DNA of 64,000 nucleotides from Escherichia coli. Lineage in GTDB: Bacteria > Pseudomonadota > Gammaproteobacteria > Enterobacterales > Enterobacteriaceae. Where the stretch lies: assembly GCF_041248615.1 (NCBI RefSeq), contig NZ_CP158426.1; one strand, 5' to 3'. The translations under genes were made by a program, and so were the position numbers. This document shows positions 6,567 through 39,716 of this stretch, piece by piece. Every line of letters begins with the position of its first letter. Position 1 is the stretch's first letter. The notes below the pieces were generated by a model. It was not told the DNA's origin. It saw nothing but the letters and a program-made list of their open reading frames with translations, and made no database searches.

Positions 6567-6567
6567 G

Positions 6568-7908: not shown

Positions 7909-7928
7909 TTTTGAAAAAGGACATAAAT

Positions 7929-9269: not shown

Positions 9270-9342
9270 GACAGAAAACCAAAACCGGCTCTTTCAGGAG
9301 CCGGTTTGAGATTACTGACGAAGTGGCTTACGGGGACGGTTT

Positions 9343-9445
9343 TCCCCTCGCCCTTTCAAGGAGAGGACCGGGGTGAGGGTAATCATTCGCACTTGCGTTG
9401 GCCTGTTCCCCTCACCCTAACCCTCTCCCCGGAGGGGCGAGGGGA
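9343..9445. repeat. GC-rich composite inverted-repeat extragenic element between convergent gudD and barA
   Basis: Two 37-38 bp copies in inverted orientation (TCCCCTCGCCC..GGGGTGAGGG at 9343-9379; CCCCTCACCC..GGGGCGAGGGGA at 9408-9445), each internally palindromic. Confidence 0.5.
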
Positions 9446-9508
9446 CTGTCTGTGCTGCTCCCAGCATTGGCATTGGACGGAACCTATTTTGACTCGACAA
9501 AACGTCCA

Positions 9509-21939: not shown

Positions 21940-22277
21940 TTAAACATTTATAAGCGTTATAAATGGGTGGAACCTGTAAAGACTTCTACTCATTTATATT
22001 CTTTGTCGCCTCTAAAAAACCTCCATTTTGCCCATCCTGGACTAATCATTATCATTTTCTACAAATTCTGTGGCGTTAATTTTTCGTTGGAGTGAAAATT
22101 ATTACGTCGGAGTTTGGTGGATTTTAGTCGGTATAGAATTACTTTAAATATTTGGCTTTTCAATCAATGAATTAAGTGCTCTTTAACATAATGGATGTGT
22201 TGTTTGTGTGTTTCTGTTAAGTTGGTAGATTGTGACTGACTTAAAAAATCAATAATTAATAATAGGTTATGTTTAGT

Positions 22278-22672
22278 GAGTTCCCCGCGCCAGCGGGGAT
22301 AAACCGGCTGATGCGGTTCTATCACCACCACAAATTATGAGTTCCCCGCGCCAGCGGGGATAAACCGCAAATACGCGCGAGTGGCTAACCTGGAATCATG
22401 AGTTCCCCGCGCCAGCGGGGATAAACCGGCGCGGACGATAATCAGGGGCAGGCAGGGCACGAGTTCCCCGCGCCAGCGGGGATAAACCGGAAATCCAATA
22501 TTAACGTGGTGTTTTCAAAACGAGTTCCCCGCGCCAGCGGGGATAAACCGCGTTTAGCTCCGCAATGCTGGATATCACTGATGAGTTCCCCGCGTCAGCG
22601 GGGATAAACCGTATGGGAAACAGTAGCAACGGGCACACTGGCGGAGTTCCCCGCGCCAGCGGGGATAAACCA
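22278..22672 (+). CRISPR. Orphan type I-E CRISPR array (CRISPR-II / 2.1): 7 repeats, 6 spacers of 32 bp, leader on the left
   Basis: 29-bp repeat GAGTTCCCCGCGCCAGCGGGGATAAACCG at 61-bp period; repeat 6 has the GCGTCAG variant; last repeat ends ..AAACCA; AT-rich leader with GTTGGTAGATTGT at 22221-22233. Confidence 0.95.
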
Positions 22673-23140
22673 CCATATAACCCGTAATCTCTTTCTAAAG
22701 TTTTTATATTAGCAGTACTCGTAATAAGCAACATATCCACGTAACACCTCATGTTCAAAATAGCTCTCCATATATGAGAAGTTCACAATTATCGATACAA
22801 AAAATCAAATTTAATTAAAGTGTTAGTTGTATAATACTTAAATCATTAAGAAATTATCATATATTATTTTTTTAATATTGAATTGATGTTTGTTAGTTTT
22901 TTCTTTAGGATAATAGATTGTTTTTTAAGCTTATTATTCATTGATTAAGTAATAAATCTGGAAATTTGTCTTTGTTTTGAGGCTAATGAGTGGTTTTACA
23001 TAACCGTCTCTATAGACTGTTGATGAATAGTTCTTATGAATAAAGATATCCAGTTCATACTTTAAATGAAAATTGATAAAGTACGGTTTGCGTTGTCTTT
23101 TATTCTAAGGACATCGAGTGTAGTTAATATTCCTTGTAAC

Positions 23141-23265
23141 AACAGGGATAAACCGAACTAGTTAAAGTTTTTATTATGTTCCCTGCATCAGCGGGGATAA
23201 ACCGGACTTGTTATCATTTTTTAAGTTGTCGAACTTATGTTCCCCACGTCAGCGGGGATAACCAT
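23141..23265 (+). CRISPR. Degenerate CRISPR remnant (CRISPR 2.2-2.3-like): partial repeat, two degenerate repeats, one 32-bp spacer
   Basis: ..AACAGGGATAAACCG (23141-23155); ATGTTCCCTGCATCAGCGGGGATAAACCG (23176-23204); 32-bp spacer; ATGTTCCCCACGTCAGCGGGGATAACCA (23237-23264). Confidence 0.6.
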
Positions 23266-23310
23266 TCAGGTATGTTCAGGCCGGGCAGTTTCCCGCCCGG
23301 CCTTCCTCAC

Positions 23311-24789
23311 TTACGCATTCGACCAGCTCTGGATCGAATCCGCATTCCCCAATTCACCATGCATCACTTCATACGATTTTTTCAGGATCACATCAGTGTG
23401 CTTGGTTAGGTCTTTGAAAATGCCTTTATTCATCGCGTCGTAGCGTTTGGCGTTGCTCTCAACAGGCATAAAGATATCTTTCACGCGAACCATTTTGTCG
23501 ACAGCCGTTGCGTAATCCGGGTATAGCCCCAGACCTACCGCCGTATTAATCGCTGCCCCCAGACTTGCACAACCATTAATGGCGTTACGGCGTGCCGGAA
23601 GGTTGAACACGTCGGCAAAAATCTGCATAAACAGATCGCTGTTCGAACCGCCGCCAGTAATGATCACATGCTTTGCAAAGTGATTCATTTCATTACACAT
23701 ATTGTCGTAATTGTTCTTCAGCGTCAGCGCCACGCTTTCCAGTATCGAACGATATATCCATGCGTAATCCATGCTGGAATCAAAGCCGATCATAATCCCG
23801 CGTTTGTACGGTTCCCACGGATTGGTCAGCCAGTCCAGCACCGTCATCAGACCATTACAGCCAGGCGGCACACAAGACGCTTTTTTGTTGAGTAAATCTT
23901 CCGGTGAAAGATCCTGTGCTTTGGCATCCTGAATTAACGACTCGCCTAACATGTCGCGCAGCCAGCTCACTGTCCACATGCCTTTGCGGATACCGTAACC
24001 TTCATACAGCAATGTTTGCGGAATAGAAGACATAATCGGCCAGTACGCTACCGGATCTTTCGGCAGTGCTTTGCCGTTCATCATCAACGCGATGTAAGTG
24101 CCAAGAGAAATTACCGCAGTTTCATCATCCAGTAACCCGGCTCCCAGTGCTTCTACCGGTTTATCACTGGTGGTACAAACAACCGGCAGCCCAGCCGGGA
24201 AATGTGTCGCCAGCGCGGCTTGACGAGTGATATGCCCAAGAACAGTGCCCGGCATTTGCACATCAAACAGCATATGACGGGGGATATTAAACTTCTCCAT
24301 GACTGCGGCATCTTCACTCCATGCCCAGGTCTTATAATCCACCGGCCACTGACCAAAATAGTTGGCGATATTGTCTTTAAACTCGCCGGTTAAGCGATGC
24401 GTCAGATAACCCGAAAAAGAGGTGACATATGCCACGTCAGGATTCGTATGTTCGTAAGGGCGTGTAACGCGTGCATCCTGCCAGCTAATCAACGGCGCAG
24501 CTGGCGTGCCATCGGCTTTCAATAACGCACGGCAGCAACGGATGGATCCCAGACCAATACCGACAATATCTTCTTTATTTCCGGCAAACTGACTCATCAA
24601 ATCGTGACCGGCAAAGCATAATGATGCCCATAAATCGTCGTCAGGATGTTCTGCGGTATCGGCATCTGGCGTGTGCATCGGCTGCAATAAGCCTTTGCCT
24701 TCGCAAACCACATTACCTTCCAGATCGTACATCACCACTTTTGTGCTCTGACTTCCACCATCAATCCCTATGATGTATTTTTTCGACAT
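23311..24789 (-). CDS. ygcE: FGGY-family carbohydrate kinase YgcE
   Basis: 492-aa ORF with N-terminal IGIDGGSQSTK kinase motif. Confidence 0.8.
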   Translation of the reverse strand: MSKKYIIGIDGGSQSTKVVMYDLEGNVVCEGKGLLQPMHTPDADTAEHPDDDLWASLCFAGHDLMSQFAGNKEDIVGIGLGSIRCCRALLKADGTPAAPLISWQDARVTRPYEHTNPDVAYVTSFSGYLTHRLTGEFKDNIANYFGQWPVDYKTWAWSEDAAVMEKFNIPRHMLFDVQMPGTVLGHITRQAALATHFPAGLPVVCTTSDKPVEALGAGLLDDETAVISLGTYIALMMNGKALPKDPVAYWPIMSSIPQTLLYEGYGIRKGMWTVSWLRDMLGESLIQDAKAQDLSPEDLLNKKASCVPPGCNGLMTVLDWLTNPWEPYKRGIMIGFDSSMDYAWIYRSILESVALTLKNNYDNMCNEMNHFAKHVIITGGGSNSDLFMQIFADVFNLPARRNAINGCASLGAAINTAVGLGLYPDYATAVDKMVRVKDIFMPVESNAKRYDAMNKGIFKDLTKHTDVILKKSYEVMHGELGNADSIQSWSNA

Positions 24790-24815
24790 GATTTTTCTCC
24801 TGTAATTTTCTGGAC

Positions 24816-26093
24816 TTACTTGCTGCTAGCCATAGCAGGGGCGCTATCAGCAGTACGAATTTTTTGGAACAGCAAAAAGGTAAAGACGATCACCATGGCA
24901 AGCGCCGCCATGCCCATCAGCCACATATTGCGGTAGGCTTCTGCAGCGGGCAGGGTGTCTTGCCAGTAGCCGATAATCGGGTAAACGAAGACATCCGGCA
25001 GGAATCCAATCACCGAACAAATACCTACCGTGGTGCCCATAATGTAAGACGGTGTTCTCGCTTCGCCAGGGCAGGCCCAGTACAGCCCGCGTGAGGCGTA
25101 ACAGGTGAATCCCAGCAGTAAAATCAGGCCAATCCCCATCGCGACCGATTGCGGGTTAGAGTTCGTGACGAGCAGGGCAGTTAACGCCAGCAAGCCGAGT
25201 ACGGAAAGGATTTGGATCACGCGGGTAGGGGATTTCACTTTGCTGTAGGTGGTGATAATGCCACCAAGTGGGCCGCACAGTGCGCGGAAGATTTTGTTGA
25301 TCACAATCCCCATGTAGCTCGCCGCCACCAGCGACATGCCGTACATTTCGGTCAGATAGTTGGTGGAGTAACTCAGAATGGCGTAGATGGTGAAGACACC
25401 AAAAATCACCATGCTGCAATACCAGGTGGTGCTGATGCGCAAAACAGCCAGGATGTCGCTAAGCTGGAATGACTGTTTTTCTTCGTTATTGGTATTGCGC
25501 AGGTTGTTGTTATCGCTAACAAAAAACCAACACAAAATGCCCAGCAGAATGTAAACCACACTATAGATAATAATGACCGTTTTCAGGCTGGCGCTGTCAT
25601 CCGGTGCAAAGCGAGAAAAGACCCACATGGTAAACACCGCCAGCGACATTACACCGACGCCGCGCAGCCCTTCCATCCAGCCCATAATTTTCCCTTGCTC
25701 GCTATGATCGCCCAGCAACGAGGCGGCTTTAATCGACACCGACCACAGCATTAAAATCGTCGTTATCGCAAAGGCGACCTGAATACAGAGCATTACCCAC
25801 AGCGGTGGATATGTTGCCATTAACAGACCCAGTAATCCGGTAATGATCATCGCGGAAGTAATCATTTTGCGGTGTGAAAATTTATCGGCAATAACGCCGC
25901 TGGGGGCATAAAGAATAATAGCCGCAATACCAAAGGTACTCATTATTAAACCTATCTCGGTATTGCTGAATCCCATAAATTTCGCCATGGGAATTTGATA
26001 AATATAACGTAAATAAGCCAGGTCGAAACTAACGCCGCCGCTAAAACTAATTATCGCGAGGGTTATCCAACGGCGATATGAGTTGTGTTGCAT
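24816..26093 (-). CDS. yqcE: MFS transporter YqcE
   Basis: 425-aa hydrophobic ORF directly upstream of ygcE on same strand. Confidence 0.8.
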   Translation of the reverse strand: MQHNSYRRWITLAIISFSGGVSFDLAYLRYIYQIPMAKFMGFSNTEIGLIMSTFGIAAIILYAPSGVIADKFSHRKMITSAMIITGLLGLLMATYPPLWVMLCIQVAFAITTILMLWSVSIKAASLLGDHSEQGKIMGWMEGLRGVGVMSLAVFTMWVFSRFAPDDSASLKTVIIIYSVVYILLGILCWFFVSDNNNLRNTNNEEKQSFQLSDILAVLRISTTWYCSMVIFGVFTIYAILSYSTNYLTEMYGMSLVAASYMGIVINKIFRALCGPLGGIITTYSKVKSPTRVIQILSVLGLLALTALLVTNSNPQSVAMGIGLILLLGFTCYASRGLYWACPGEARTPSYIMGTTVGICSVIGFLPDVFVYPIIGYWQDTLPAAEAYRNMWLMGMAALAMVIVFTFLLFQKIRTADSAPAMASSK

Positions 26094-26116
26094 ATCGTAT
26101 TCCCATTTGTAATAGA

Positions 26117-26180
26117 CAAAAAAAAGAGAAAAGTAAGCCGCCCTTTCAGGTGGATTACTTTTCTCAGGTCTCTAGTAATT
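26117..26180 (-). promoter_or_regulatory. yqcE leader: conserved 5' hairpin (antiterminator candidate) overlapping intrinsic terminator about 24 nt before the start codon
   Basis: Minus strand: hairpin AUUACU/AGUAAU (26153-26178) with loop AGAGACCUGAGAAA; terminator arms GAGAAAAGTAA/TTACTTTTCTC (26125-26164) plus U8 (A-run 26117-26124 on + strand). Confidence 0.6.
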
Positions 26181-26213
26181 GCAATAAGAAATAACATGGA
26201 AAGCAGTGGTGTT

Positions 26214-26229
26214 GTGTGAGAGTAATCAC
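26214..26229. promoter_or_regulatory. CRP-like site TGTGAGAGTAATCACG, positioned for the yqcE promoter
   Basis: TGTGA-N6-TCACG; centre about 41.5 bp from the start of the yqcE leader motif. Confidence 0.45.
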
Positions 26230-26271
26230 GCTTCTGCTTTTTAAAATTATTTGACAATTCGAATATCACAC

Positions 26272-26287
26272 TGTGATTACGATCACA
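26272..26287. promoter_or_regulatory. Consensus CRP site TGTGATTACGATCACA, positioned for the ygcW promoter
   Basis: Perfect TGTGA-N6-TCACA; centre about 42 bp from the start of the ygcW leader motif; TATGAT -10-like hexamer at 26304-26309. Confidence 0.5.
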
Positions 26288-26321
26288 TTAGCGATTATGC
26301 CCTTATGATAAAAATTATCTC

Positions 26322-26388
26322 CAGTTACCAGAGATAATGAGAAAGGTAACTTCCCTCTCGCGGGGGAAGTTACCTTTCTTTTTTTTTT
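26322..26388 (+). promoter_or_regulatory. ygcW leader: conserved 5' hairpin (antiterminator candidate) overlapping strong intrinsic terminator 25 nt before the start codon
   Basis: Hairpin AGUUACC/GGUAACU (26323-26351) with loop AGAGAUAAUGAGAAA; terminator 14-bp stem AAAGGTAACTTCCC/GGGAAGTTACCTTT (26342-26377) plus T10 (26379-26388). Confidence 0.65.
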
Positions 26389-26412
26389 GCCTTACGGAAA
26401 TTGGAGCTAACT

Positions 26413-27198
26413 ATGTCAATCGAATCTCTCAATGCGTTCTCAATGGATTTTTTCTCCCTGAAAGGTAAAACCGCAATTGTTACCGGCGGGAATAGCGGTT
26501 TAGGCCAGGCATTTGCCATGGCGCTGGCCAAAGCAGGCGCAAATATCTTTATTCCAAGCTTCGTTAAAGATAACGGCGAAACAAAGGAAATGATTGAAAA
26601 ACAGGGTGTTGAGGTGGACTTCATGCAGGTGGATATCACCGCAGAAGGCGCGCCGCAGAAGATAATCGTCGCCTGTTGCGAACGTTTCGGTACCGTCGAT
26701 ATTCTGATTAACAATGCCGGTATTTGTAAGCTGAATAAGGTGCTGGACTTCGGTCGTGCCGACTGGGACCCGATGATTGATGTGAACCTGACCGCCGCAT
26801 TCGAGTTAAGCTATGAAGCTGCAAAAATTATGATCCCGCAGAAAAGCGGTAAAATCATTAATATCTGTTCATTATTCTCTTACTTAGGTGGACAATGGTC
26901 ACCTGCATATTCTGCCACTAAACATGCTCTTGCCGGATTCACCAAAGCTTATTGTGATGAACTAGGTCAATATAATATTCAGGTAAATGGTATTGCCCCT
27001 GGCTATTATGCAACAGATATTACGCTGGCGACACGCAGTAATCCAGAAACTAATCAGCGCGTTCTTGATCATATTCCGGCAAACCGTTGGGGCGATACTC
27101 AGGATTTAATGGGCGCAGCCGTATTCCTCGCAAGTCCGGCTTCAAATTATGTTAACGGGCATTTATTAGTGGTCGATGGCGGTTATTTAGTGCGCTAA
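26413..27198 (+). CDS. ygcW: Short-chain dehydrogenase/reductase YgcW (KduD-like)
   Basis: ORF 26401-27198 (TTG); likely ATG start 26413 (MSIESLNAF...) with GGAG at 26403-26406; TGGNSGLG Rossmann motif. Confidence 0.8.
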   Translation: MSIESLNAFSMDFFSLKGKTAIVTGGNSGLGQAFAMALAKAGANIFIPSFVKDNGETKEMIEKQGVEVDFMQVDITAEGAPQKIIVACCERFGTVDILINNAGICKLNKVLDFGRADWDPMIDVNLTAAFELSYEAAKIMIPQKSGKIINICSLFSYLGGQWSPAYSATKHALAGFTKAYCDELGQYNIQVNGIAPGYYATDITLATRSNPETNQRVLDHIPANRWGDTQDLMGAAVFLASPASNYVNGHLLVVDGGYLVR

Positions 27199-27267
27199 TC
27201 CATAACGGTGGTTTCTGTTTTCTCTTATTAATGATTATTCCATTTTTATTATCAGGAAGGAATTACT

Positions 27268-28722
27268 ATGTCTTTATCTCGCGCAGCGATTGTCGACCAG
27301 CTAAAGAAAATTGTTGGTGCAGATCGCGTAATTACCGATGAAACAGTATTAAAGAAGAACAGTATTGACCGTTTTCGCAAATTTCCGGATATTCATGGCA
27401 TTTATACTTTGCCGATTCCGGCAGCGGTCGTAAAACTCGGTTCCACAGAACAAGTATCCCGTGTGCTGAATTTTATGAATGCGCACAAAATTAACGGTGT
27501 GCCGCGTACCGGTGCTTCCGCTACCGAAGGTGGGCTGGAAACCGTTGTGGAAAACTCGGTGGTGCTCGACGGCTCTGCCATGAATCAAATCATTAATATT
27601 GATATTGAGAATATGCAGGCCACGGCGCAATGCGGAGTTCCGCTGGAAGTGCTGGAAAACGCGTTGCGTGAAAAAGGTTACACCACGGGGCATTCTCCGC
27701 AGTCAAAGCCGCTGGCGCAGATGGGCGGCCTGGTAGCAACCCGCAGTATCGGGCAGTTCTCCACACTCTACGGCGCAATCGAAGATATGGTCGTTGGTCT
27801 GGAAGCAGTATTGGCTGATGGCACCGTAACACGCATTAAAAACGTACCACGCCGCGCGGCAGGCCCGGACATTCGTCACATCATCATCGGCAACGAAGGT
27901 GCATTGTGCTATATCACTGAAGTAACTGTGAAAATCTTTAAGTTCACCCCGGAAAACAACCTCTTCTACGGCTATATCCTGGAAGACATGAAAACCGGCT
28001 TCAACATCCTGCGTGAAATCATGGTGGAAGGGTATCGTCCGTCGATCGCTCGTTTGTATGACGCTGAAGATGGCACCCAACACTTCACCCATTTTGCTGA
28101 CGGAAAATGCGTGCTGATCTTTATGGCTGAAGGTAACCCTCGCATTGCGAAGGCGACGGGCGAAGGGATTGCTGAAATCGTGGCACGTTACCCGCAATGC
28201 CAGCGAGTGGACAGCAAGCTGATCGAAACCTGGTTTAACAACCTGAACTGGGGACCGGATAAAGTAGCTGCCGAACGTGTGCAGATCCTCAAAACCGGCA
28301 ACATGGGCTTTACCACCGAAGTGTCCGGCTGCTGGAGCTGCATTCACGAAATCTACGAAAGCGTTATTAACCGTATTCGTACCGAGTTCCCGCACGCCGA
28401 CGACATCACCATGCTGGGCGGTCACTCCTCTCACAGCTACCAGAACGGCACCAACATGTACTTCGTTTACGACTACAACGTTGTTGACTGTAAGCCGGAA
28501 GAGGAAATCGACAAGTACCACAATCCGCTCAACAAAATCATCTGCGAAGAAACCATTCGCCTCGGCGGTTCGATGGTGCACCACCACGGTATTGGTAAAC
28601 ATCGCGTTCACTGGAGCAAACTGGAACACGGCAGCGCGTGGACGTTGCTGGAAGGTCTGAAAAAACAGTTCGATCCTAACGGCATTATGAATACGGGTAC
28701 TATCTATCCGATTGAAAAATAA
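27268..28722 (+). CDS. ygcU: FAD-linked oxidoreductase YgcU (glycolate oxidase / alkyl-DHAP synthase-like)
   Basis: 484-aa ORF. Confidence 0.8.
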   Translation: MSLSRAAIVDQLKKIVGADRVITDETVLKKNSIDRFRKFPDIHGIYTLPIPAAVVKLGSTEQVSRVLNFMNAHKINGVPRTGASATEGGLETVVENSVVLDGSAMNQIINIDIENMQATAQCGVPLEVLENALREKGYTTGHSPQSKPLAQMGGLVATRSIGQFSTLYGAIEDMVVGLEAVLADGTVTRIKNVPRRAAGPDIRHIIIGNEGALCYITEVTVKIFKFTPENNLFYGYILEDMKTGFNILREIMVEGYRPSIARLYDAEDGTQHFTHFADGKCVLIFMAEGNPRIAKATGEGIAEIVARYPQCQRVDSKLIETWFNNLNWGPDKVAAERVQILKTGNMGFTTEVSGCWSCIHEIYESVINRIRTEFPHADDITMLGGHSSHSYQNGTNMYFVYDYNVVDCKPEEEIDKYHNPLNKIICEETIRLGGSMVHHHGIGKHRVHWSKLEHGSAWTLLEGLKKQFDPNGIMNTGTIYPIEK

Positions 28723-28814
28723 TATGTCAGGCAGCGTTCCGCTATGAGGGGCGTTGCCTTTTCGGCTTCTCAGGCGAGAAGCCGTTCTTATTACCGGACA
28801 ATGAAGGGGTAAAG

Positions 28815-30152
28815 ATGAACACTTCACCGGTGCGAATGGATGATTTACCGCTTAACCGTTTTCACTGTCGAATTGCTGCGCTCACTTTCGGGGCGCACCT
28901 GACCGACGGTTATGTTCTCGGCGTCATTGGTTACGCCATTATTCAGCTTACACCCGCCATGCAACTGACGCCGTTTATGGCGGGAATGATTGGCGGCTCG
29001 GCGCTACTTGGCCTGTTTATCGGTAGCCTGGTTTTGGGGTGGATCTCCGACCATATTGGTCGGCAAAAAATCTTCACCTTCAGCTTTTTGCTGATTACGC
29101 TCGCTTCGTTCTTACAATTTTTTGCCACCACGCCAGAGCATCTTATTGGACTGCGCATTTTGATCGGCATTGGTCTGGGAGGCGATTACTCAGTAGGCCA
29201 CACCTTGCTGGCTGAATTTTCTCCGCGCCGCCATCGCGGTATTTTGCTGGGCGCATTCAGCGTGGTGTGGACCGTAGGCTATGTGCTGGCAAGTATTGCC
29301 GGACATCACTTTATTAGCGAAAGCCCGGAGGCCTGGCGCTGGCTGCTGGCATCGGCAGCTCTGCCCGCATTGTTGATTACGTTATTACGCTGGGGAACGC
29401 CAGAATCGCCACGCTGGCTACTGCGCCAGGGGCGTTTTGCAGAAGCTCACGCTATCGTGCATCGCTATTTTGGTCCCCATGTTTTACTGGGCGATGAAGT
29501 GGCAACGGCGACCCATAAACACATCAAAACCTTGTTCTCTTCGCGCTACTGGCGGCGCACGGCGTTTAACAGCGTCTTCTTTGTCTGCCTCGTAATCCCA
29601 TGGTTTGTGATTTATACCTGGCTGCCAACTATCGCCCAGACTATTGGTCTGGAAGATGCGCTGACAGCTAGCCTGATGCTTAATGCGTTGTTAATTGTGG
29701 GTGCGCTGCTGGGATTAGTTCTGACGCACCTGCTGGCACATCGCAAATTTTTGCTGGGAAGTTTTTTGTTGCTGGCGGCAACGCTGGTCGTGATGGCCTG
29801 TTTGCCTTCCGGCAGTTCATTAACGCTGCTGCTTTTTGTTCTCTTCAGCACCACCATTTCGGCAGTCAGTAATCTGGTGGGCATTTTGCCTGCGGAAAGT
29901 TTTCCTACTGACATTCGCTCGCTGGGCGTCGGTTTTGCCACCGCCATGAGTCGACTTGGCGCGGCGGTAAGTACGGGCCTGCTGCCGTGGGTGCTGGCGC
30001 AGTGGGGAATGCAAGTCACCTTAATGCTCCTGGCGGCAGTGTTGTTGGTTGGTTTTGTTGTGACCTGGCTATGGGCACCAGAAACCAAAGCACTCCCGCT
30101 GGTGGCGGCGGGAAATGTAGGAGGTGCGAATGAACATTCTGTTAGCGTTTAA
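28815..30152 (+). CDS. ygcS: MFS transporter YgcS
   Basis: 445-aa hydrophobic ORF. Confidence 0.8.
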   Translation: MNTSPVRMDDLPLNRFHCRIAALTFGAHLTDGYVLGVIGYAIIQLTPAMQLTPFMAGMIGGSALLGLFIGSLVLGWISDHIGRQKIFTFSFLLITLASFLQFFATTPEHLIGLRILIGIGLGGDYSVGHTLLAEFSPRRHRGILLGAFSVVWTVGYVLASIAGHHFISESPEAWRWLLASAALPALLITLLRWGTPESPRWLLRQGRFAEAHAIVHRYFGPHVLLGDEVATATHKHIKTLFSSRYWRRTAFNSVFFVCLVIPWFVIYTWLPTIAQTIGLEDALTASLMLNALLIVGALLGLVLTHLLAHRKFLLGSFLLLAATLVVMACLPSGSSLTLLLFVLFSTTISAVSNLVGILPAESFPTDIRSLGVGFATAMSRLGAAVSTGLLPWVLAQWGMQVTLMLLAAVLLVGFVVTWLWAPETKALPLVAAGNVGGANEHSVSV

Positions 30153-30909
30153 AGCCGAACCGGATGCCGGAATGCTGGCGGAAAAAGAGTGGCAGGCGGC
30201 GGCTCAGGGTAATAGCGGACCGGATGTTTCGCTTCTGCGAAGTTTACTCGGTGCTGATGAACAGGCTGCCGCCGCGCTGCTGTTGGCGCAGAGAAAAAAC
30301 GGTACGTCGATGTCCTTAACCGCGTTGAGCATGGGGGATGAACGGGCGTTGCACTGGCTGCGCTATCTCATGGCGCTTGGGTTTGAGGAAGCTGTATTGC
30401 TGGAGACGGCGGCAGATCTGCGCTTTGCGCCGGAATTTGTCGCTCGCCATATTGCCGAATGGCAGCGTCAGAATCCGCTGGATCTGATAATTACCGGCTG
30501 CCAAAGCAGCGAAGGGCAGAATGGGCAAACGCCATTTTTGCTGGCGGAAATGCTGGGCTGGCCCTGCTTCACCCAGGTGGAGCGTTTTACTCTCGACGCG
30601 CCGTTTATCACCCTCGAACAGCGTACTGAAAACGGGCTGCGCTGTTGCCGGGTTCGCTTGCCTGCGGTGATTGCCGTGCGTCAGTGCGGTGAAGTGGCCT
30701 TGCCAGTACCGGGAATGCGCCAGCGTATGGCGGCGGGGAAAGCAGAAATTATCCGTAAAACTGTTGCTGCCGAATCGCCAGCGATGCAGTGTCTGCAACT
30801 GGCAAGAGCAGAGCAACAACGCGGAGCGACGCTGATTGATGGGCAAACGGTAGCAGAAAAAGCGCAAAAGCTATGGCAGGACTATTTACGCCAAAGGATG
30901 CAGCCATGA
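30130..30909 (+). CDS. ygcR: Electron transfer flavoprotein beta-subunit-like protein YgcR
   Basis: ORF 30124-30909; start probably MNILLAFK at 30130; overlaps ygcS stop. Confidence 0.7.
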   Translation: MNILLAFKAEPDAGMLAEKEWQAAAQGNSGPDVSLLRSLLGADEQAAAALLLAQRKNGTSMSLTALSMGDERALHWLRYLMALGFEEAVLLETAADLRFAPEFVARHIAEWQRQNPLDLIITGCQSSEGQNGQTPFLLAEMLGWPCFTQVERFTLDAPFITLEQRTENGLRCCRVRLPAVIAVRQCGEVALPVPGMRQRMAAGKAEIIRKTVAAESPAMQCLQLARAEQQRGATLIDGQTVAEKAQKLWQDYLRQRMQP

Positions 30910-31766
30910 ATATCGCAATTGTGACAATAAATCAGGAGAATGCCGCAATAGCGAGCTGGCTGGCAGAACAGGATTTCAGCGGTTGTACCCTGGCACACTG
31001 GCAGATTGAACCTCAGCCCGTAGTGGCGGAACAGGTGCTGGATGCGCTGGTGGAACAGTGGCAGCGAACGCCAGCGGACGTTGTTCTCTTTCCGCCGGGA
31101 ACGTTTGGCGATGAACTGTCGACCCGGCTGGCCTGGCGTTTACATGGTGCAAGCATCTGCCAGGTGACTTCGTTAGATATTCCAACTGTAAGCATGCGCA
31201 AATCCCACTGGGGAAATGCGCTAACGGCGACGCTGCAAACAGAAAAACGCCCGCTATGCCTTTCCCTTGCCCGCCAGGCGGGAGCACTGAAAAACGCCAC
31301 GTTGCCCTCTGGTATGCAGCAACTGAACATTGTCCCCGGCGCGCTTCCCGACTGGCTGGTTAGCACAGAGGATCTGAAAAATGTTACCCGTGACCCATTA
31401 GCTGAGGCCAGACGGGTGCTGGTGGTGGGGCAGGGCGGAGAGGCAGATAACCAGGAAATCGCTATGCTGGCAGAAAAGCTGGGAGCCGAAGTGGGCTACA
31501 GTCGGGCGCGAGTAATGAACGGTGGCGTTGATGCCGAAAAAGTGATTGGTATTTCCGGACATCTGCTGGCACCTGAGGTGTGTATTGTTGTTGGCGCTTC
31601 CGGCGCAGCAGCGTTAATGGCGGGCGTCCGCAATAGCAAGTTTGTGGTGGCGATTAATCATGACGCCAGCGCGGCGGTATTTTCACAGGCAGATGTTGGC
31701 GTGGTTGATGACTGGAAAGCGGTGCTGGAGGCACTGGTGACAAACATTCACGCAGATTGCCAATAA
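30906..31766 (+). CDS. ygcQ: Electron transfer flavoprotein alpha-subunit-like protein YgcQ
   Basis: ORF 30873-31766; start probably MNIAIVTINQ at 30906, overlapping ygcR stop. Confidence 0.7.
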   Translation: MNIAIVTINQENAAIASWLAEQDFSGCTLAHWQIEPQPVVAEQVLDALVEQWQRTPADVVLFPPGTFGDELSTRLAWRLHGASICQVTSLDIPTVSMRKSHWGNALTATLQTEKRPLCLSLARQAGALKNATLPSGMQQLNIVPGALPDWLVSTEDLKNVTRDPLAEARRVLVVGQGGEADNQEIAMLAEKLGAEVGYSRARVMNGGVDAEKVIGISGHLLAPEVCIVVGASGAAALMAGVRNSKFVVAINHDASAAVFSQADVGVVDDWKAVLEALVTNIHADCQ

Positions 31767-31794
31767 CGTGCAGCCGGATGATCCTGCCTACGGT

Positions 31795-31870
31795 TCTGGG
31801 CTGGGGACTTGTAGGCCTGATAAGACGCGTCAAGCGTCGCATCAGGCGCTGAATGTCGGATGTGGCGTGC
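31795..31870. repeat. REP (repetitive extragenic palindromic) element(s) between convergent ygcQ and ygcP
   Basis: GCCTGATAAGACGCGTCAAGCGTCGCATCAGGC-type palindromic unit. Confidence 0.65.
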
Positions 31871-31873
31871 AGC

Positions 31874-32488
31874 CTACAAATCACACAAATTCAATTCGTT
31901 ACGATTATCCCGACAAAGCAATTTTTTCGCTAGCGTCCAGACCCCGGTATTCGTGGTGGAAAGCGCCACGACACCTGCGTTAATCGCATTACGCGCATCT
32001 TCTTCATCGCACACCAGCCCGCCAGCAATCAGCGGTTGGCGGATTTTCTCCGTCACCCAGCCCAGCACTTTGGGCATACAGCCTGGCAGGATCTCAATAC
32101 AATCCGGATTCGATTGCGCAACTTGCTTATCAATGTTGTGAAACGAAATTGAATCAACAATAAACAGGCGATGAATACAGAAAAAACCTTCCGCTCTTGC
32201 TGCTTTCAGCATTGAGGCTTTGGTACTGATAATTCCGTCCGCCTCGGTCACCAGTTTCAAAAACTGAATCACCACTTCTTTATTTGACGCGCCTTCCAGC
32301 AAATCAACATGAATAAAAGCATATTTTCCGGCATTTTTAATCTTTTTAACGATTTGACTAATGGTGCAGATATTGCCGTACAACACGGAAATAAACTGGC
32401 ATTCAGAGTCGATTGCCAGTTGCAGGCTGGCATTATCTTTAACGGCAGCAATCACCGGATTCTGGCGGAGCAGGTGTAAGAGGGGCAT
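31874..32488 (-). CDS. ygcP: GlpP-family (glycerol-3-phosphate-responsive) transcription antiterminator homolog YgcP
   Basis: 204-aa ORF MPLLHLLRQNPVIAAVKDNASLQ...; C-terminal codons run into the REP element so the true stop may differ. Confidence 0.7.
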   Translation of the reverse strand: MPLLHLLRQNPVIAAVKDNASLQLAIDSECQFISVLYGNICTISQIVKKIKNAGKYAFIHVDLLEGASNKEVVIQFLKLVTEADGIISTKASMLKAARAEGFFCIHRLFIVDSISFHNIDKQVAQSNPDCIEILPGCMPKVLGWVTEKIRQPLIAGGLVCDEEDARNAINAGVVALSTTNTGVWTLAKKLLCRDNRNELNLCDL

Positions 32489-32504
32489 AAATTATCCTTA
32501 TTAT

Positions 32505-32765
32505 TTATCCAAAACGGTAGGTGATGCCGAATCCGGAAGGCGGATAGCGCCACTGTTGTAGTGTTGATTCGTCGCACAGCAAACGGCAGGTGCCACACTC
32601 CAGGCAGCCGCGATAATCAACGCGTAAGTCACCTTCCGGTGTGAGCAAAAAAAGACCAGCCGGACAAGCGTTAATCAACCGTTGTACCGTCTGGCGCTCA
32701 ACGGAGTCAGCCGGAACAATGTGCGGCGCATCGGCAACGCGCCAGAGATTACGGACTACAGACAT
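32505..32765 (-). CDS. ygcO: Ferredoxin-like protein YgcO (FixX-like)
   Basis: ORF 32505-32801; probable start MSVVRNL (86 aa); C-x2-C-x2-C-x3-C region CLECGTCRLLC. Confidence 0.7.
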   Translation of the reverse strand: MSVVRNLWRVADAPHIVPADSVERQTVQRLINACPAGLFLLTPEGDLRVDYRGCLECGTCRLLCDESTLQQWRYPPSGFGITYRFG

Positions 32766-34027
32766 CGCAGACTCCTGATAACATCGCCCGCCAGATGCCA
32801 CAGGCCGTGACGACGTAAATGACGCCAGAATAACTGGCGCAGCGGCGGAACAGGTTTATCACCCTGATCCCATAAATCACGGGAAATATCCTGCATTAAC
32901 GCAGGCCACGCCCGATACCAGCCAGGTCGTTGCAAAAGCGCCGGAACATGCTGATAACGTTGTAGAACATCCCATAGCAGGCTGCGCTCGACGTTGTGAT
33001 GATAAAGCGCAAACAGATTTTGCGGCTCGCGGTGCTGGCAGGCGCTTATCAGCGTTTGTGCCGCCGCCTGCGCGCCAGTTAGCGCCATATCCATGCCGCG
33101 TACGGAAATTCCGGTATTGACGCAACTGCGCAACGCATCGCCCAGCAGCAGCCAGCCGTTACCGGCGTATTGCACCGGCATACTGTGCAAGCCACCTTCT
33201 GGCACCAGATGCGCACCATACTCCAGTGATTCCGTGTTTTTGATAAGCGGGCGCACTGCCGGATGCGTTTTAAAGCGAGCCAGCAGCTCGCTTGCCGGAA
33301 CACGACTTTGCGTAAGGGAAGAGAGCGGGCAAACAATCCCTAACGAGAGCGTTTGTTGATTAGTATAAAGAAATGCGCCGCCGGGTAAGTCATCACAGAT
33401 CCCGCCGCTGAACAGCAACGCTGCGCCTTCGTTATTCTCCAGATGAAAACGTTCTTCAATAGCGGATGTTTCCAGCGACAGCACTTCTTTGATCCCCAAC
33501 GCCATCGCTTCGCCAGCAGGACGAGTCACTAACCCGTGACGCTCAGCCAGGACGCTGTTGGCACCTTCTGCCAGCACCACATAACGGGCGCGGAGAATAT
33601 CGTCACCACAAATGACACCACACACCCTGCCGTTTACTTCATACAGCGCATCCACCGTCGCACCAGGGATGCATTCGACACCTTCTTTTTCGGCTTCGGC
33701 AACCAGCCACGGATCGAACCGTGCACGTAATACGCTCCAGGATTCACCGCCGGGCTGTAAGCTGGAAAACGTCGTTGCGCCATCCGGCGTTAACAGGGAA
33801 AGGCTTTCGTGAGTGATGCGTCGTTCAAGAGGCGCGGTCAGATGAAATTGTGGGAGGAGTTCCGCGAGCGCATGGGTGTATAAACGCCCGCCGGAAAGGT
33901 TTTTACTGCCGGGAATTTCAGCTCGTTCCAGTAACAGAACGGACAAACCTGCCCGCGCGCAGCGTAAAGCACAAGCGGTGCCTGCTATACCCGCACCAAT
34001 AATAATAATGTCGCAGTCGTCTTCCAT
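32756..34027 (-). CDS. ygcN: FAD-dependent oxidoreductase YgcN (FixC / ETF-QO-like)
   Basis: ORF 32756-34057; probable start MEDDCDIIIIGAGIAG (FAD-binding GxGxxG), 423 aa. Confidence 0.75.
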   Translation of the reverse strand: MEDDCDIIIIGAGIAGTACALRCARAGLSVLLLERAEIPGSKNLSGGRLYTHALAELLPQFHLTAPLERRITHESLSLLTPDGATTFSSLQPGGESWSVLRARFDPWLVAEAEKEGVECIPGATVDALYEVNGRVCGVICGDDILRARYVVLAEGANSVLAERHGLVTRPAGEAMALGIKEVLSLETSAIEERFHLENNEGAALLFSGGICDDLPGGAFLYTNQQTLSLGIVCPLSSLTQSRVPASELLARFKTHPAVRPLIKNTESLEYGAHLVPEGGLHSMPVQYAGNGWLLLGDALRSCVNTGISVRGMDMALTGAQAAAQTLISACQHREPQNLFALYHHNVERSLLWDVLQRYQHVPALLQRPGWYRAWPALMQDISRDLWDQGDKPVPPLRQLFWRHLRRHGLWHLAGDVIRSLRCL

Positions 34028-34104
34028 GTCGTGCCCCATATATCCAGAGCGCAACACCCTAACATAGCGTTACTTAAGGGAAATTGACCGCCGACACACT
34101 CTTA

Positions 34105-34470
34105 TCATTCGCCGCGATAGATGCAACCTGCGGTGCAGGTTTCTTTCACCATAACCGCACTTAACAGCGGAACAACCGGTTTAACCTGATCCCAAATCCA
34201 TTTTGCTAAAACCTCGCTGGTCGGGTTTTCCAGGCCAGGAATATCATTGAGATAATAGTGATCGAGGCGATCATAGGTTGGTTTAAATGCCGCTTTCAGT
34301 TCAGCGAAATCGATAATCCAGCCCGTATGCGGATCGACTTCCCCGGTAATTTCCAGTCGCACCATAAAGGAATGCCCGTGCAGGCGACCACATTTATGCC
34401 CTTCCGGGACGTGTGGTAAGCGGTGAGCGGCTTCGAAGGTGAAATCTTTAAATAACGTGGTGGACATCAT
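34105..34470 (-). CDS. queD: 6-carboxy-5,6,7,8-tetrahydropterin synthase QueD
   Basis: ORF 34105-34554; start at [21 protein letters not shown] gives 121 aa. Confidence 0.85.
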
Positions 34471-34785
34471 AATTTCTCTACAGGACGATAAAACCGCCGT
34501 AGAGTACCGGAAAGGCTGTTTTTTCGCATTATCTAAAACGACTTTGTTGCGCAAAATCGCTGATTTATCTTATTGATGGGCAATATTCATTTGTTTTTCA
34601 TTGGGTTGGTTAATCTATTTTGTTGTTAAAGACTATTGCTAAAACAGGTTAGTCGATTTGGTTATTAGTTATCGCTATCCCGTCTTTAATCCACACCGTT
34701 CACCCCGTTAACCTTATCTTCTCTTCTGTTTTATGGGCGCTGACAGGGCGCAGAAACAGCTTTGCTTACTGGAACATAACGACGC

Positions 34786-36585
34786 ATGACGACACAGGTC
34801 CCACCTTCCGCGTTGCTTCCGTTGAACCCGGAGCAACTGGCACGCCTTCAGGCGGCCACGACCGATTTAACTCCCACCCAGCTTGCTTGGGTTTCTGGCT
34901 ATTTCTGGGGCGTGCTCAACCAGCAGCCTTCTGCGCTTGCAGCGACGCCAGCGCCCGCCGCAGAAATGCCGGGTATAACTATTATCTCCGCTTCGCAAAC
35001 CGGCAATGCGCGCCGGGTTGCTGAAGCATTACGCGATGATTTATTGGCGGCAAAACTGAACGTTAAGCTGGTGAACGCGGGCGACTATAAATTCAAACAA
35101 ATCGCCAGCGAAAAACTGCTTATCGTGGTGACGTCAACGCAAGGGGAAGGGGAACCGCCGGAAGAAGCCGTCGCGCTGCATAAGTTCCTGTTCTCCAAAA
35201 AAGCGCCGAAGCTGGAAAACACCGCGTTTGCCGTGTTTAGCCTCGGCGATAGTTCTTATGAATTTTTCTGCCAGTCCGGGAAAGATTTTGACAGTAAGCT
35301 GGCGGAACTGGGCGGTGAACGCCTGCTCGACCGTGTCGATGCCGACGTTGAATACCAGGCTGCTGCCATCGAGTGGCGCGCCCGCGTGGTTGATATTCTG
35401 AAGTCCCGTGCGCCTGTCGCGGCACCTTCGCAATCCGTCGCTACTGGCGCGGTAAATGAAATTCACACCAGCCCGTACAGCAAAGACGCGCCGCTGGTGG
35501 CGAGCCTCTCTGTTAACCAGAAAATTACCGGGCGTAACTCTGAAAAAGACGTTCGCCATATCGAAATTGACTTAGGTGACTCGGGCCTGCGTTACCAGCC
35601 GGGTGACGCGCTGGGCGTCTGGTATCAGAACGATCCGGCACTGGTGAAAGAACTTGTCGAACTGCTGTGGCTGAAAGGTGATGAACCTGTCACCGTCGAG
35701 GGCAAAACGTTGCCTCTGAACGAAGCGCTACAGTGGCACTTCGAACTGACCGTCAACACCGCCAACATTGTTGAGAACTATGCCACGCTTACCCGCAGCG
35801 AAACGCTGCTGCCGCTGGTGGGCGATAAAGCGAAGTTACAGCATTACGCCGCGACCACGCCGATTGTCGACATGGTGCGTTTCTCTCCGGCGCAACTGGA
35901 TGCCGAAGCGCTGATTAATCTGCTGCGCCCGCTGACCCCGCGCCTGTATTCCATCGCCTCCTCACAGGCGGAAGTCGAGAACGAAGTACACGTCACCGTT
36001 GGCGTGGTGCGTTACGACGTGGAAGGCCGCGCCCGTGCCGGTGGTGCCTCCAGCTTCCTCGCGGACCGCGTGGAAGAAGAGGGCGAAGTCCGCGTATTTA
36101 TCGAACATAACGACAACTTCCGCCTGCCAGCCAACCCAGAAACCCCGGTGATTATGATTGGCCCAGGCACCGGCATCGCGCCGTTCCGAGCCTTTATGCA
36201 GCAGCGCGCCGCTGACGAAGCGCCGGGTAAAAACTGGCTGTTCTTTGGCAATCCGCACTTTACGGAAGATTTCCTCTACCAGGTGGAATGGCAGCGCTAC
36301 GTCAAAGAGGGCGTGCTGACGCGTATCGATCTTGCCTGGTCGCGCGATCAAAAAGAAAAAATTTACGTACAAGACAAACTGCGCGAACAGGGCGCGGAGC
36401 TGTGGCGCTGGATCAATGACGGTGCCCACATTTATGTCTGCGGCGACGCTAATCGCATGGCGAAAGACGTTGAGCAGGCACTTCTGGAAGTGATTGCCGA
36501 ATTTGGTGGCATGGACACCGAAGCGGCGGATGAATTTTTAAGTGAGCTGCGCGTAGAGCGCCGTTATCAGCGAGATGTCTACTAA
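34786..36585 (+). CDS. cysJ: Sulfite reductase [NADPH] flavoprotein alpha-component CysJ
   Basis: 599-aa ORF; flavodoxin plus FAD/NADPH domains. Confidence 0.9.
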
Positions 36586-39369: not shown

Positions 39370-39522
39370 ATGCTGACAAAATATGCCCTTGTGGCAATCA
39401 TCGTACTGTGTTGTACAGTACTGGGATTCACGCTGATGGTAGGCGACTCGTTGTGTGAGTTGAGTATCAGAGAACGTGGTATGGAGTTTAAGGCAGTTCT
39501 CGCTTACGAATCGAAGAAGTAG
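39370..39522 (+). CDS. Hok/Gef-family small membrane toxin (50 aa), HokE-like; not in ORF track because shorter than 60 aa
   Basis: [50 protein letters not shown]: hydrophobic N-terminal helix, conserved Cys, Hok signature ..LCE..R...E..A.LAYE; mRNA-like 5' GGGUGCUUGAGGC and 3' GCACCC plus T-run. Confidence 0.7.
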
Positions 39523-39716
39523 CCACCACGCGGGGGTAAAACCCCGCGTATTGAATTGTGATGGTTTGGTCTCCTGCACCCTTTTTTAATTTATATTGTT
39601 TATGTGAATATTATGCCTATGTTTATTATTTATATATATTACTGATGAAAATTATTTGATTATTCATAATGTAAATATTTTATTGAACGATATATATCAC
39701 AGATAATTTTTAATAT

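Follow-up and report, generated by a model that had tools for sequence, protein, structure and literature searches.

Escherichia coli possesses an antitermination system of the BglG type, that of its bgl genes. A regulator of a different kind, GlpP of Bacillus subtilis, acts by antitermination on the leaders of Bacillus glp operons (PMC9604022), and we use its behaviour here as the model for YgcP, the product of one gene of the E. coli ygc locus. This locus occupies positions 23311-34057 of the window, by which we mean the whole 64,000-nucleotide stretch of E. coli contig NZ_CP158426.1 that was analysed, and comprises ten intact genes, as determined by an open reading frame (ORF) scan and by megablast against complete E. 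coli genomes. On balance we regard the ygc cluster as a catabolic mosaic assembled around a regulon under GlpP-type antitermination; what appears to be new is that a switch of the GlpP type is attached to a different pathway, one built around a flavoenzyme resembling alkyl-dihydroxyacetonephosphate synthase (alkyl-DHAP synthase, or ADPS). Literature searches on the ygc gene names gave no functional study but only passing mentions (in promoter SELEX lists, for a CRP site, and for a ygcU deletion that was without effect on D-serine signalling), and we found no published work on YgcP, on the ygc leader RNA element, or on the pathway.

The 319-bp intergenic region between yqcE and ygcW holds two leaders, one for each of the divergent operons. 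Both conform to the consensus AGUUACY-AGAGA-N3-5-GAGAAA-RGUAACU, in which a weak 5' hairpin overlaps an intrinsic terminator. The ygcW leader, on the plus strand, reads AGUUACC-AGAGA-UAAU-GAGAAA-GGUAACUUCCC...GGGAAGUUACCUUUCU-U10, with GGUAACU as the antiterminator 3' strand, and the yqcE leader, on the minus strand, reads AAUUACU-AGAGA-CCU-GAGAAA-AGUAAUCC...UUACUUUUCUC-U8, with AGUAAUC in the corresponding position. The terminators fold at -34.7 kcal/mol (z -7.5) for ygcW and -22.3 kcal/mol (z -4.0) for yqcE, the antiterminator hairpins alone at -6.7 and -1.4 kcal/mol respectively, and the 5' arm of each terminator can, through its first bases, pair alternatively with the upstream AGUUACY strand. 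Such weakness of the antiterminator hairpin is what one would expect if its stability depends on a bound protein.

Alignment of 55 leaders shows the AGAGA and most of the GAGAAA-G to be invariant and the remainder nearly so. Pairing in the antiterminator helix reaches 91.7%, and four of its seven pairs show compensatory changes; for the terminator helix the figures are 90.8% and nine of 17 pairs. The covariation of both helices is clearly above that of slid and shuffled controls, with sequence relatedness inflating the figures somewhat. A covariance model, R1, built from this alignment finds exactly two strong copies in the window, the ygcW leader (82.9 bits, E = 9.5e-14) and the yqcE leader (72.2 bits, E = 1.4e-11). 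The same element precedes the core operons (defined below) in every lineage examined, and copies of R1 lie upstream of short-chain dehydrogenase/reductase (SDR), kinase, major facilitator superfamily (MFS) and BCCT transporter genes wherever a gene of the YgcP subfamily accompanies the core; these lineages include Vibrio, Photobacterium, Clostridium, Sporomusa, Anaeromicrobium, Thalassobacillus, Fodinisporobacter and a high-GC Streptomyces megaplasmid, whose leader reads AGTTACTAGAGACCAGAGAACAGTAACT. The element begins a few bases after a good sigma-A promoter in Listeria and Bacillus, that is, at the 5' end of the transcript. A scan of a metagenome collection with the exact motif returned 79 stretches, all of them within ygc clusters; these matches are on Enterobacterales contigs only, mostly E. 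coli-like, and show specificity with no new contexts. Rfam has no match in 26094-26412 at E ≤1, and a wider scan of 22000-35000 at the same threshold gave just two weak matches outside the leader region (one naRNA4/REP-like, one to a snoRNA model), such that a motif conserved from E. coli to Streptomyces is absent from that database.

YgcP is a member of PF04309 (G3P_antiterm; Pfam E = 2e-62 over residues 12-184) and matches PDB entry 3kts at 1e-27. The longest ygcP ORF encodes 204 residues, the largest E. coli protein cluster has 191, and nearly all homologues have 188-192; the true start is likely to be an internal Met near 32449, giving a protein of 191 residues. Because the behaviour of B. 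subtilis GlpP is established, we infer that YgcP acts as an antiterminator when bound to its ligand. Each of two transcripts (yqcE-ygcE, and ygcW-ygcU with ygcS-ygcR-ygcQ downstream) begins with a strong intrinsic terminator, whose 5' arm can pair instead with the upstream AGUUACY, forming the weak hairpin with its loop of about 15 nucleotides that bears the invariant AGAGA and GAGAAA. YgcP loaded with a phosphorylated intermediate of the pathway, either glycerol-3-phosphate itself or a near analogue of it, would bind and stabilise this hairpin, and the stabilised hairpin would block the terminator and permit read-through, as with GlpP on the Bacillus glp leaders. From the analysis as a whole we consider this model for the ygc operons probable.

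Three canonical glp loci provide a comparison: a glpP-glpK-glpO operon of Anaerococcus, a glpP-ugp locus on a Bacillus thuringiensis plasmid, and a glpA-like operon of clostridial type. Their leaders have complementary strands around (A/G)GAG(A)-N-GAG(A/U)A(A/C), beside a hairpin, and resemble the ygc leader qualitatively only; R1 scores these three leaders at E ~0.4 or worse. In the clostridial-type locus (L154, 10001-13677) the glpA-like neighbours encode a DAO/BFD flavoprotein, a pyridine-nucleotide oxidoreductase and a DUF1667 protein, and the leader reads AAGCA-GGAG-UUUUU-GAGUAA-UGCU followed by a terminator, in the same layout as the ygc leaders. Because of the context and leader of this glpP gene, the YgcP subfamily is not cleanly separable from ordinary clostridial GlpP.

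Control is also exerted on the DNA. Between the divergent operons lies a perfect CRP palindrome, TGTGA-N6-TCACA; a 2026 Footprint-seq preprint (PMC12871828) attributes the same site, acTGTGAttacgaTCACAtta, to ygcW/yqcE and estimates its Kd at 1.7 nM, and yqcE-ygcE is listed among Crp-activated units (PMC8085971). Cyclic AMP-CRP at this one shared site would give global permission at initiation, and the leader terminators would give specific induction. A previous reading of these genes from sequence alone (the sequence-only reading) had proposed control at the level of RNA, and this is borne out by two leader terminators with overlapping, covarying antiterminator hairpins that accompany ygcP homologues across phyla; RNA-level control of both divergent operons is well supported. 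DNA-level control through CRP has to be added to that picture, given the high-affinity site and the reports just cited. The accompanying observation that the cluster encodes no DNA-binding regulator of its own is correct; we found no such gene within it.

To ask which genes belong together we scanned for YgcP in one genome per species, which gave 62 loci, and mapped the ten E. coli ygc proteins onto them. A core of ygcP, ygcU, ygcW, ygcE and a transporter gene is present together in all but two of these loci, the exceptions being L043, where ygcP is an orphan, and L063, which is a canonical glp operon. The core was seen in Enterobacterales, Vibrionaceae, Listeria, Bacillus, Clostridia, Sporomusa and Streptomyces, where Streptomyces clavuligerus carries it on a megaplasmid, and further look-ups and a plasmid search added core clusters in Vibrio, Photobacterium, Clostridium, Sporomusa, Anaeromicrobium, Thalassobacillus, Fodinisporobacter and one further genome. 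Listeria sensu lato has it as a single operon, ygcU-ygcP-yqcE-ygcW-ygcE, and identity across phyla is very high, at 76-78% for YgcW (with the Listeria orthologues) and 62% for YgcU; E. coli YgcU is 65-73% identical to its orthologues in Clostridia, Sporomusa and Vibrio, where the electron transfer flavoprotein (ETF) subunits are only 27-36% identical. The yqcE orthologue of Photobacterium is 58% identical, and ygcE is conserved across all ygc-type loci. By contrast with this core, ygcS, ygcRQ and ygcNO are missing from the Listeria, Pantoea, Erwinia, Thalassobacillus, Streptomyces and several Serratia versions, and FixCX-like genes of the ygcN/ygcO type were found only in Enterobacterales among the loci examined. 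The sequence-only reading had named all ten gene families correctly, as the ORF scan, the annotated record, NCBIfam and Pfam agree, but treated the genes as a single island; instead there are three transcription units, two of them with a leader, and ygcS, ygcRQ and ygcNO are accessory.

The two classes of genes also differ in their evolution. Within Escherichia and Citrobacter the ratio of nonsynonymous to synonymous substitution (dN/dS) is 0.007-0.06 for core genes (0.007-0.03 for ygcP), and 0.08-0.25 for ygcR, 0.12-0.20 for ygcQ, 0.13-0.31 for ygcO and 0.05-0.13 for ygcN. Purifying selection is strong, and on ygcP very strong. The electron-transfer genes are under weaker constraint than the core, yet are not decaying; we considered decay of the ETF genes and rejected it on these values of at most 0.31. 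GC content is 42-50% over the core, versus 54-56% over ygcS-R-Q and ygcN. We note that the ETF/Fix genes evolve several-fold faster than the core while ygcP, lying between them, is almost invariant, and that in Mixta identity drops from 91% for YgcU to 39% for YgcQ. In Pantoea, Erwinia and Serratia (L049, 4461-9976; also L042, L044-46, L050-52 and L054) the ETF genes are replaced by an alternative set of neighbours, with a LysR gene directly upstream of ygcP and, divergent from it, ygcS and genes for a protein like formaldehyde-activating enzyme (Fae), an aldo-keto reductase, and an aldehyde dehydrogenase resembling succinate semialdehyde dehydrogenase; no leader element was found on this operon. 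The orphan ygcP of Serratia microhaemolytica (L043, 7431-8000) is 70% identical to that of E. coli and sits between metH and fldB with no core genes nearby, and R1 has no copy at this locus. In Listeria grandensis (L056, 12745-14096) the ygcE orthologue appears to be split into two overlapping ORFs, through either a frameshift or an error of sequencing, whereas the other Listeria loci have it intact.

The enzyme that sets the pathway apart is YgcU. Among solved structures alkyl-DHAP synthases match it best, with glycolate oxidase and LctD behind them; in the phmmer comparison with 4bby (E = 5e-40) two aligned stretches span the PCMH-type FAD-binding and cap domains. YgcU residues Arg262, Tyr398 and His438-440 align with R419, Y578 and H615-617 of ADPS, the positions of which were cross-checked against the R419H and Y578F mutant entries (4bc7 and 4bca). 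Arg419, Tyr578 and the His615-617 loop are the catalytic elements of ADPS. The Arg/Tyr/HHH set is invariant in 13 YgcU orthologues from Proteobacteria, Firmicutes and Actinobacteria, and is lacking in a co-occurring GlcD-like oxidase, which has (S/G)EHG instead. YgcU has 484 residues versus 658 in ADPS, and the alignment begins at ADPS residue 215, the N-terminal region being missing and, with it, the ADPS feature of a hydrophobic tunnel for an acyl or fatty-alcohol chain; YgcU is thus best described as ADPS-like, and not as an ADPS.

The other core enzymes would fit a substrate of related shape. Members of the KduD and gluconate 5-dehydrogenase group, to which YgcW belongs, oxidise a CHOH adjoining a terminal CH2OH, and YgcE is closest to the FGGY kinases LsrK and xylulokinase, which act on such terminal hydroxyls. 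YgcW would oxidise the penultimate CHOH to give a terminal ketol, YgcE would phosphorylate the terminal hydroxyl to yield an analogue of dihydroxyacetone phosphate (DHAP) substituted at C1, and YgcU would act at C1 of that analogue. The three families would then converge on X-CH2-CO-CH2-OPO3, the class of molecule on which ADPS works; the proposed chemistry, read from family membership, is tentative. A more specific and rather doubtful version is that the core constitutes a cleavage route for C1-substituted glycerol derivatives with a non-hydrolysable bond, in which the SDR and kinase would turn a free diol into an alkyl- or onium-DHAP and YgcU would then expel the substituent by covalent flavin chemistry, amounting to ether-lipid biosynthesis run catabolically under a GlpP-type switch. 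Candidate compounds could be ether- or onium-linked, such as deacylated betaine-lipid head groups (glyceryl-trimethylhomoserine) or a dihydroxypropyl-onium compound. Two distant ygc-type clusters (L153, 17721-18536; L155, 10783-12772) encode SurE phosphatases with 50% mutual identity, a hint that the phosphate is perhaps removed again after the YgcU step; the SurE gene of L155 adjoins one for an Fe-dependent alcohol dehydrogenase, and in L153 a gene of the enolase superfamily (MR_MLE) lies 13 bp upstream of ygcP.

Transporters provide a lead to the class of substrate. A BCCT or OpuC/OpuA-type transporter is encoded in the cluster in ten of the 12 lineages outside Enterobacterales and Listeria; the leader element directly precedes the BCCT genes in Sporomusa and Anaeromicrobium, and the Photobacterium and Vibrio clusters have a BCCT plus an MFS transporter. 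The BCCT and OpuC-type families are known for quaternary ammonium and sulfonium solutes, and we conclude with moderate confidence that the substrate in these relatives carries an onium or betaine group; it may be that the E. coli MFS pair serves the same or a related compound. These transporters score below every specific NCBIfam cut-off and the substrate therefore cannot be named from them. YgcS itself matches the aromatic-acid, sugar-porter and organic-cation MFS subfamilies, and its gene is tied to a different neighbouring module in Pantoea and Serratia. The substrate is probably a small glycerol-like compound rather than a plain polyol or a sugar acid, and the earlier suggestion, "polyol or sugar acid", is probably too generic in view of the ADPS catalytic set of YgcU and the presence of BCCT and OpuC-type transporters under the same leader. 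Carnitine, choline, glycerophosphocholine, 2,3-dihydroxypropanesulfonate (DHPS) and erythritol or threitol were considered as substrates and dropped on fit alone, as none suits all three enzymes and the transporter pattern. Literature searches turned up nothing of relevance on the combination of FGGY kinase, BCCT and ETF, on bacterial ADPS homologues, or on catabolism of betaine-lipid head groups.

The genes for ETF, etfBA, directly follow ygcU orthologues in Vibrio, Photobacterium, Clostridium, Sporomusa, Anaeromicrobium and L153, and by tblastn in Bacillus; ETF genes stand directly after ygcU in at least six lineages and are present in every strict anaerobe examined. Since this is so, YgcU probably exchanges electrons with ETF, in keeping with the link between FAD oxidase and ETF in the sequence-only reading. 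YgcR is 28-31% identical to the ETF-beta proteins encoded 3' of ygcU orthologues elsewhere. The matches to ETF-beta, ETF-alpha, FixX and FixC are all below the curated equivalog cut-offs, and these proteins are homologues and not FixABCX itself. We propose that electrons would pass between the YgcU flavin and YgcRQ, an ETF dedicated to it, and that in Enterobacterales YgcN/YgcO would connect this pair to the quinone pool; the flow could go either way, with the substrate being oxidised or the substituent being removed reductively. The second, GlcD-like FAD oxidase with the EHG motif, about 21% identical to YgcU, is encoded inside the ygc clusters of anaerobes and some facultative species (L066, 422-3909; L070, 14803-18207; L068, 14954-16495; L060, ~6450-9900). 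It is accompanied in Clostridium, Photobacterium and Bacillus by an ETF of its own, whose alpha subunit has a ferredoxin domain as in the bifurcating LctBCD, and stands alone in Sporomusa and apparently in Anaeromicrobium.

Several considerations weigh against the interpretation offered here. ADPS catalysis is redox-neutral, and such chemistry does not predict a dedicated ETF partner. The ygcNOP unit is without a leader, which leaves the control of ygcP itself outside the model. E. coli has MFS transporters only, and the onium idea rests on distant relatives. The SurE genes of two distant clusters point to a phosphorylated product other than plain DHAP. In L154 a GlpP that shares 62% identity with YgcP is encoded beside ordinary glycerol-3-phosphate dehydrogenase-like genes, and because of this the effector may simply be glycerol-3-phosphate. 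That YgcP binds RNA and a ligand is an inference, and so are the identity of the ligand, the order in which the enzymes act and the way in which electrons flow.

Other interpretations have to be set beside it. The ten genes could form one pathway for a plain polyol or sugar acid, with YgcU an ordinary GlcD-like dehydrogenase always requiring ETF and FixCX. An SDR, an FGGY kinase and an MFS transporter are the classic pentitol layout, YgcW is near KduD and gluconate 5-dehydrogenase, YqcE weakly matches a galactonate-type MFS subfamily, and ETF adjoins the ygcU gene in many lineages; YgcU nevertheless has the ADPS-specific Arg/Tyr/HHH and not the EHG motif of the GlcD/LDH type, the relatives' transporters are BCCT or OpuC-type, many complete versions of the cluster lack ETF and FixCX, and no protein reaches an NCBIfam equivalog cut-off, all of which makes this explanation unlikely. 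A lower probability still attaches to the idea that YgcP is an ordinary GlpP responding to glycerol-3-phosphate, and the locus an auxiliary route for glycerol or a derivative of it, for example a conjugate yielding glycerol-3-phosphate or DHAP. The identity of YgcP to the GlpP beside glpA-like genes, its 46% identity to the GlpP of the glpP-glpK-glpO operon, and the similar layout of the canonical leaders, with a GA-rich bipartite loop between complementary strands and a hairpin adjoining, all speak for it. Against these stand the non-significant scores of the covariance model at the canonical glp leaders, the complete GlpR-controlled glp system that E. coli is established to have already, and the fact that glycerol needs neither an SDR nor an ADPS-like enzyme.

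It is most improbable that YgcP is a small-barrel enzyme acting on a phosphorylated sugar, with leaders that are riboswitch-like or under another factor. The family has been tested in Bacillus only, there are weak Pfam echoes to dehydrogenases dependent on flavin mononucleotide, and in Listeria ygcP lies inside the operon between enzyme genes; however, the leader element and a gene of the YgcP subfamily occur together in every lineage examined, across phyla, a stem of 7 bp with a 15-nucleotide loop is too small for a typical aptamer and matches no Rfam family, and ygcP is often transcribed apart from the enzyme genes. Least credible of all is that the E. coli cluster has lost its function and is in decay, a view to which the lack of a known phenotype, the incidental nature of the literature and the fast divergence of the ETF genes might lead: all ten ORFs are intact, dN/dS is no higher than 0.06 in the core and at most 0.31 in the ETF/Fix genes, 5060 of 5426 complete genomes carry the cluster, and the leaders and CRP site are conserved.

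The ygc locus is 100% identical to that of the annotated E. coli chromosome NZ_LT599825, and in the complete E. coli genomes just counted (~93% of the total) a single place covers at least 80% of the ygc query. Its features are listed below; the right edge of the locus at 34057 is the start of the longest ygcN ORF, and the annotated start is at 34027. Families were assigned by NCBIfam (June 2026) and Pfam profile scans of the ten proteins. NCBIfam has a specific model for none of the ten and none reaches a curated equivalog cut-off, and on their sequences all are best regarded as homologues of named families and not as assigned enzymes. YgcW comes closest, with 348.7 bits to the KduD equivalog, below the cut-off of 369, and appears to be KduD-like but not KduD; the best score of YgcE to a named FGGY kinase is 141.6 bits, against cut-offs of 380-528 for xylulokinase, glycerol kinase, autoinducer-2 (AI-2) kinase, ribulokinase and gluconokinase.

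Features of the ygc locus, with coordinates in the window
Feature	Coordinates	Strand	Description
ygcE	23311-24789	-	FGGY-family kinase; core gene; best solved relative the AI-2 kinase LsrK (1e-29)
yqcE	24816-26093	-	MFS transporter; core in Enterobacterales and Listeria, elsewhere replaced or joined by BCCT/OpuC-type transporters
yqcE leader	26118-26183	-	Antiterminator hairpin overlapping an intrinsic terminator, then U8
CRP site	26272-26287	none	TGTGA-TTACGA-TCACA; common to both divergent promoters
ygcW leader	26320-26388	+	Antiterminator hairpin overlapping a 17-19 bp terminator, then U10
ygcW	26413-27198	+	SDR of the KduD / gluconate 5-dehydrogenase type; core gene; best solved relative KduD (3e-58)
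ygcU	27268-28722	+	Soluble alkyl-DHAP-synthase-like FAD enzyme, 484 aa; core gene
Hairpin in ygcU/ygcS gap	28763-28784	+	GC-rich, without U-run; at the junction of core and accessory module
ygcS	28815-30152	+	Second MFS transporter; accessory
ygcR	30130-30909	+	ETF beta-like, divergent (E 8e-12); accessory
ygcQ	30906-31766	+	ETF alpha-like, divergent (E 1e-21); accessory
ygcP	31874-32488	-	GlpP family (PF04309, G3P_antiterm), putative RNA-binding antiterminator; core gene
ygcO	32505-32765	-	FixX-like ferredoxin (E 9e-24); accessory
ygcN	32756-34027	-	FixC-like FAD oxidoreductase (365-378 bits), putative ETF:quinone oxidoreductase; accessory

The locus is flanked on the left by queE and a CRISPR array, and on the right by queD and cysJIH; ygcNOP, which shares its strand with queD and lies 77 bp downstream of it, is the only one of the three transcription units without a leader. 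The CRISPR array is at 22277-22672, directly left of ygcE, and is annotated in the identical record NZ_LT599825 (L001, 4967-5362); right of cysH, at about 39370-39750, are a hok/gef gene and the start of cas3, which places the ygc cluster inside the E. coli type I-E region, with the array on one side and the cas genes on the other. The hairpin between ygcU and ygcS is a possible processing site, stabilising site or module boundary. The weak naRNA4 (REP-like) match to Rfam at 31814-31914 (E = 0.028) touches the convergent gap between ygcQ and ygcP (31767-31873).

A YgcP that works as proposed would be the first antiterminator of the GlpP type to be described in a Gram-negative bacterium, and if the chemistry suggested for YgcU is true, that enzyme would be a bacterial, soluble counterpart of the ether-lipid enzyme ADPS, in what is possibly a new catabolic route. 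Ten y-genes carried by most E. coli become a testable system, with a protein-RNA switch that is defined to the exact bases to mutate and usable as a reporter for screening candidate inducers. The minimal core for reconstitution in vitro consists of the regulator, SDR, kinase and ADPS-like flavoenzyme, and there is a concrete lead to the substrate class.

Comparison with described systems places the ygc locus at the meeting of several. The operons that open with the glpD, glpFK and glpTQ leaders of B. subtilis share with it the regulator family PF04309, an intrinsic terminator in the 5' untranslated region of the target operons, a kinase and a flavin dehydrogenase among the controlled genes, and an inducer presumed to be the kinase product. 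The ygc pathway differs in being a non-glycerol one, with an SDR and an ADPS-like enzyme in place of GlpD, in having an RNA element with its own strongly conserved sequence, which R1 misses in the three canonical glp loci, and in its occurrence in Proteobacteria and Actinobacteria besides Firmicutes; it is known here from sequence alone. The RAT-terminator systems of BglG, SacY and LicT have the same arrangement of a weak 5' hairpin over a strong terminator, stabilised by a bound protein, as is proposed for YgcP, although the fold of YgcP is unrelated, lacks CAT and PRD domains, and presumably responds to a small-molecule ligand and not to phosphorylation by the phosphotransferase system. The pentitol operons for ribitol (rbtDK) and D-arabitol (dalDK) likewise bring a transporter together with a dehydrogenase and a ketose kinase of the FGGY family, but have DNA-binding repressors and no flavoenzyme, ETF or leader terminator.

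With ADPS (AGPS), its best solved homologue, YgcU shares the catalytic Arg, Tyr and HHH loop, and the SDR and kinase of the ygc cluster parallel the alkyl-DHAP reductase and alkylglycerol kinase of eukaryotic ether-lipid metabolism; unlike ADPS, YgcU is without the N-terminal region of about 200 residues and is encoded in a soluble catabolic operon, paired with ETF. A gene for a PCMH/VAO-type FAD enzyme beside etfBA is found likewise in the LctBCD-type lactate dehydrogenase-ETF systems, and E. coli FixABCX, next to the cai (carnitine) genes, offers a FixC/FixX-like link to the quinone pool with a BCCT in the same context as ETF. YgcU is only distantly related to the LctD-type oxidase that co-occurs with it, and in contrast to both LctBCD and FixABCX/cai, YgcRQ constitutes a separate, fast-evolving ETF lineage in a cluster that has no CoA-dependent enzymes.

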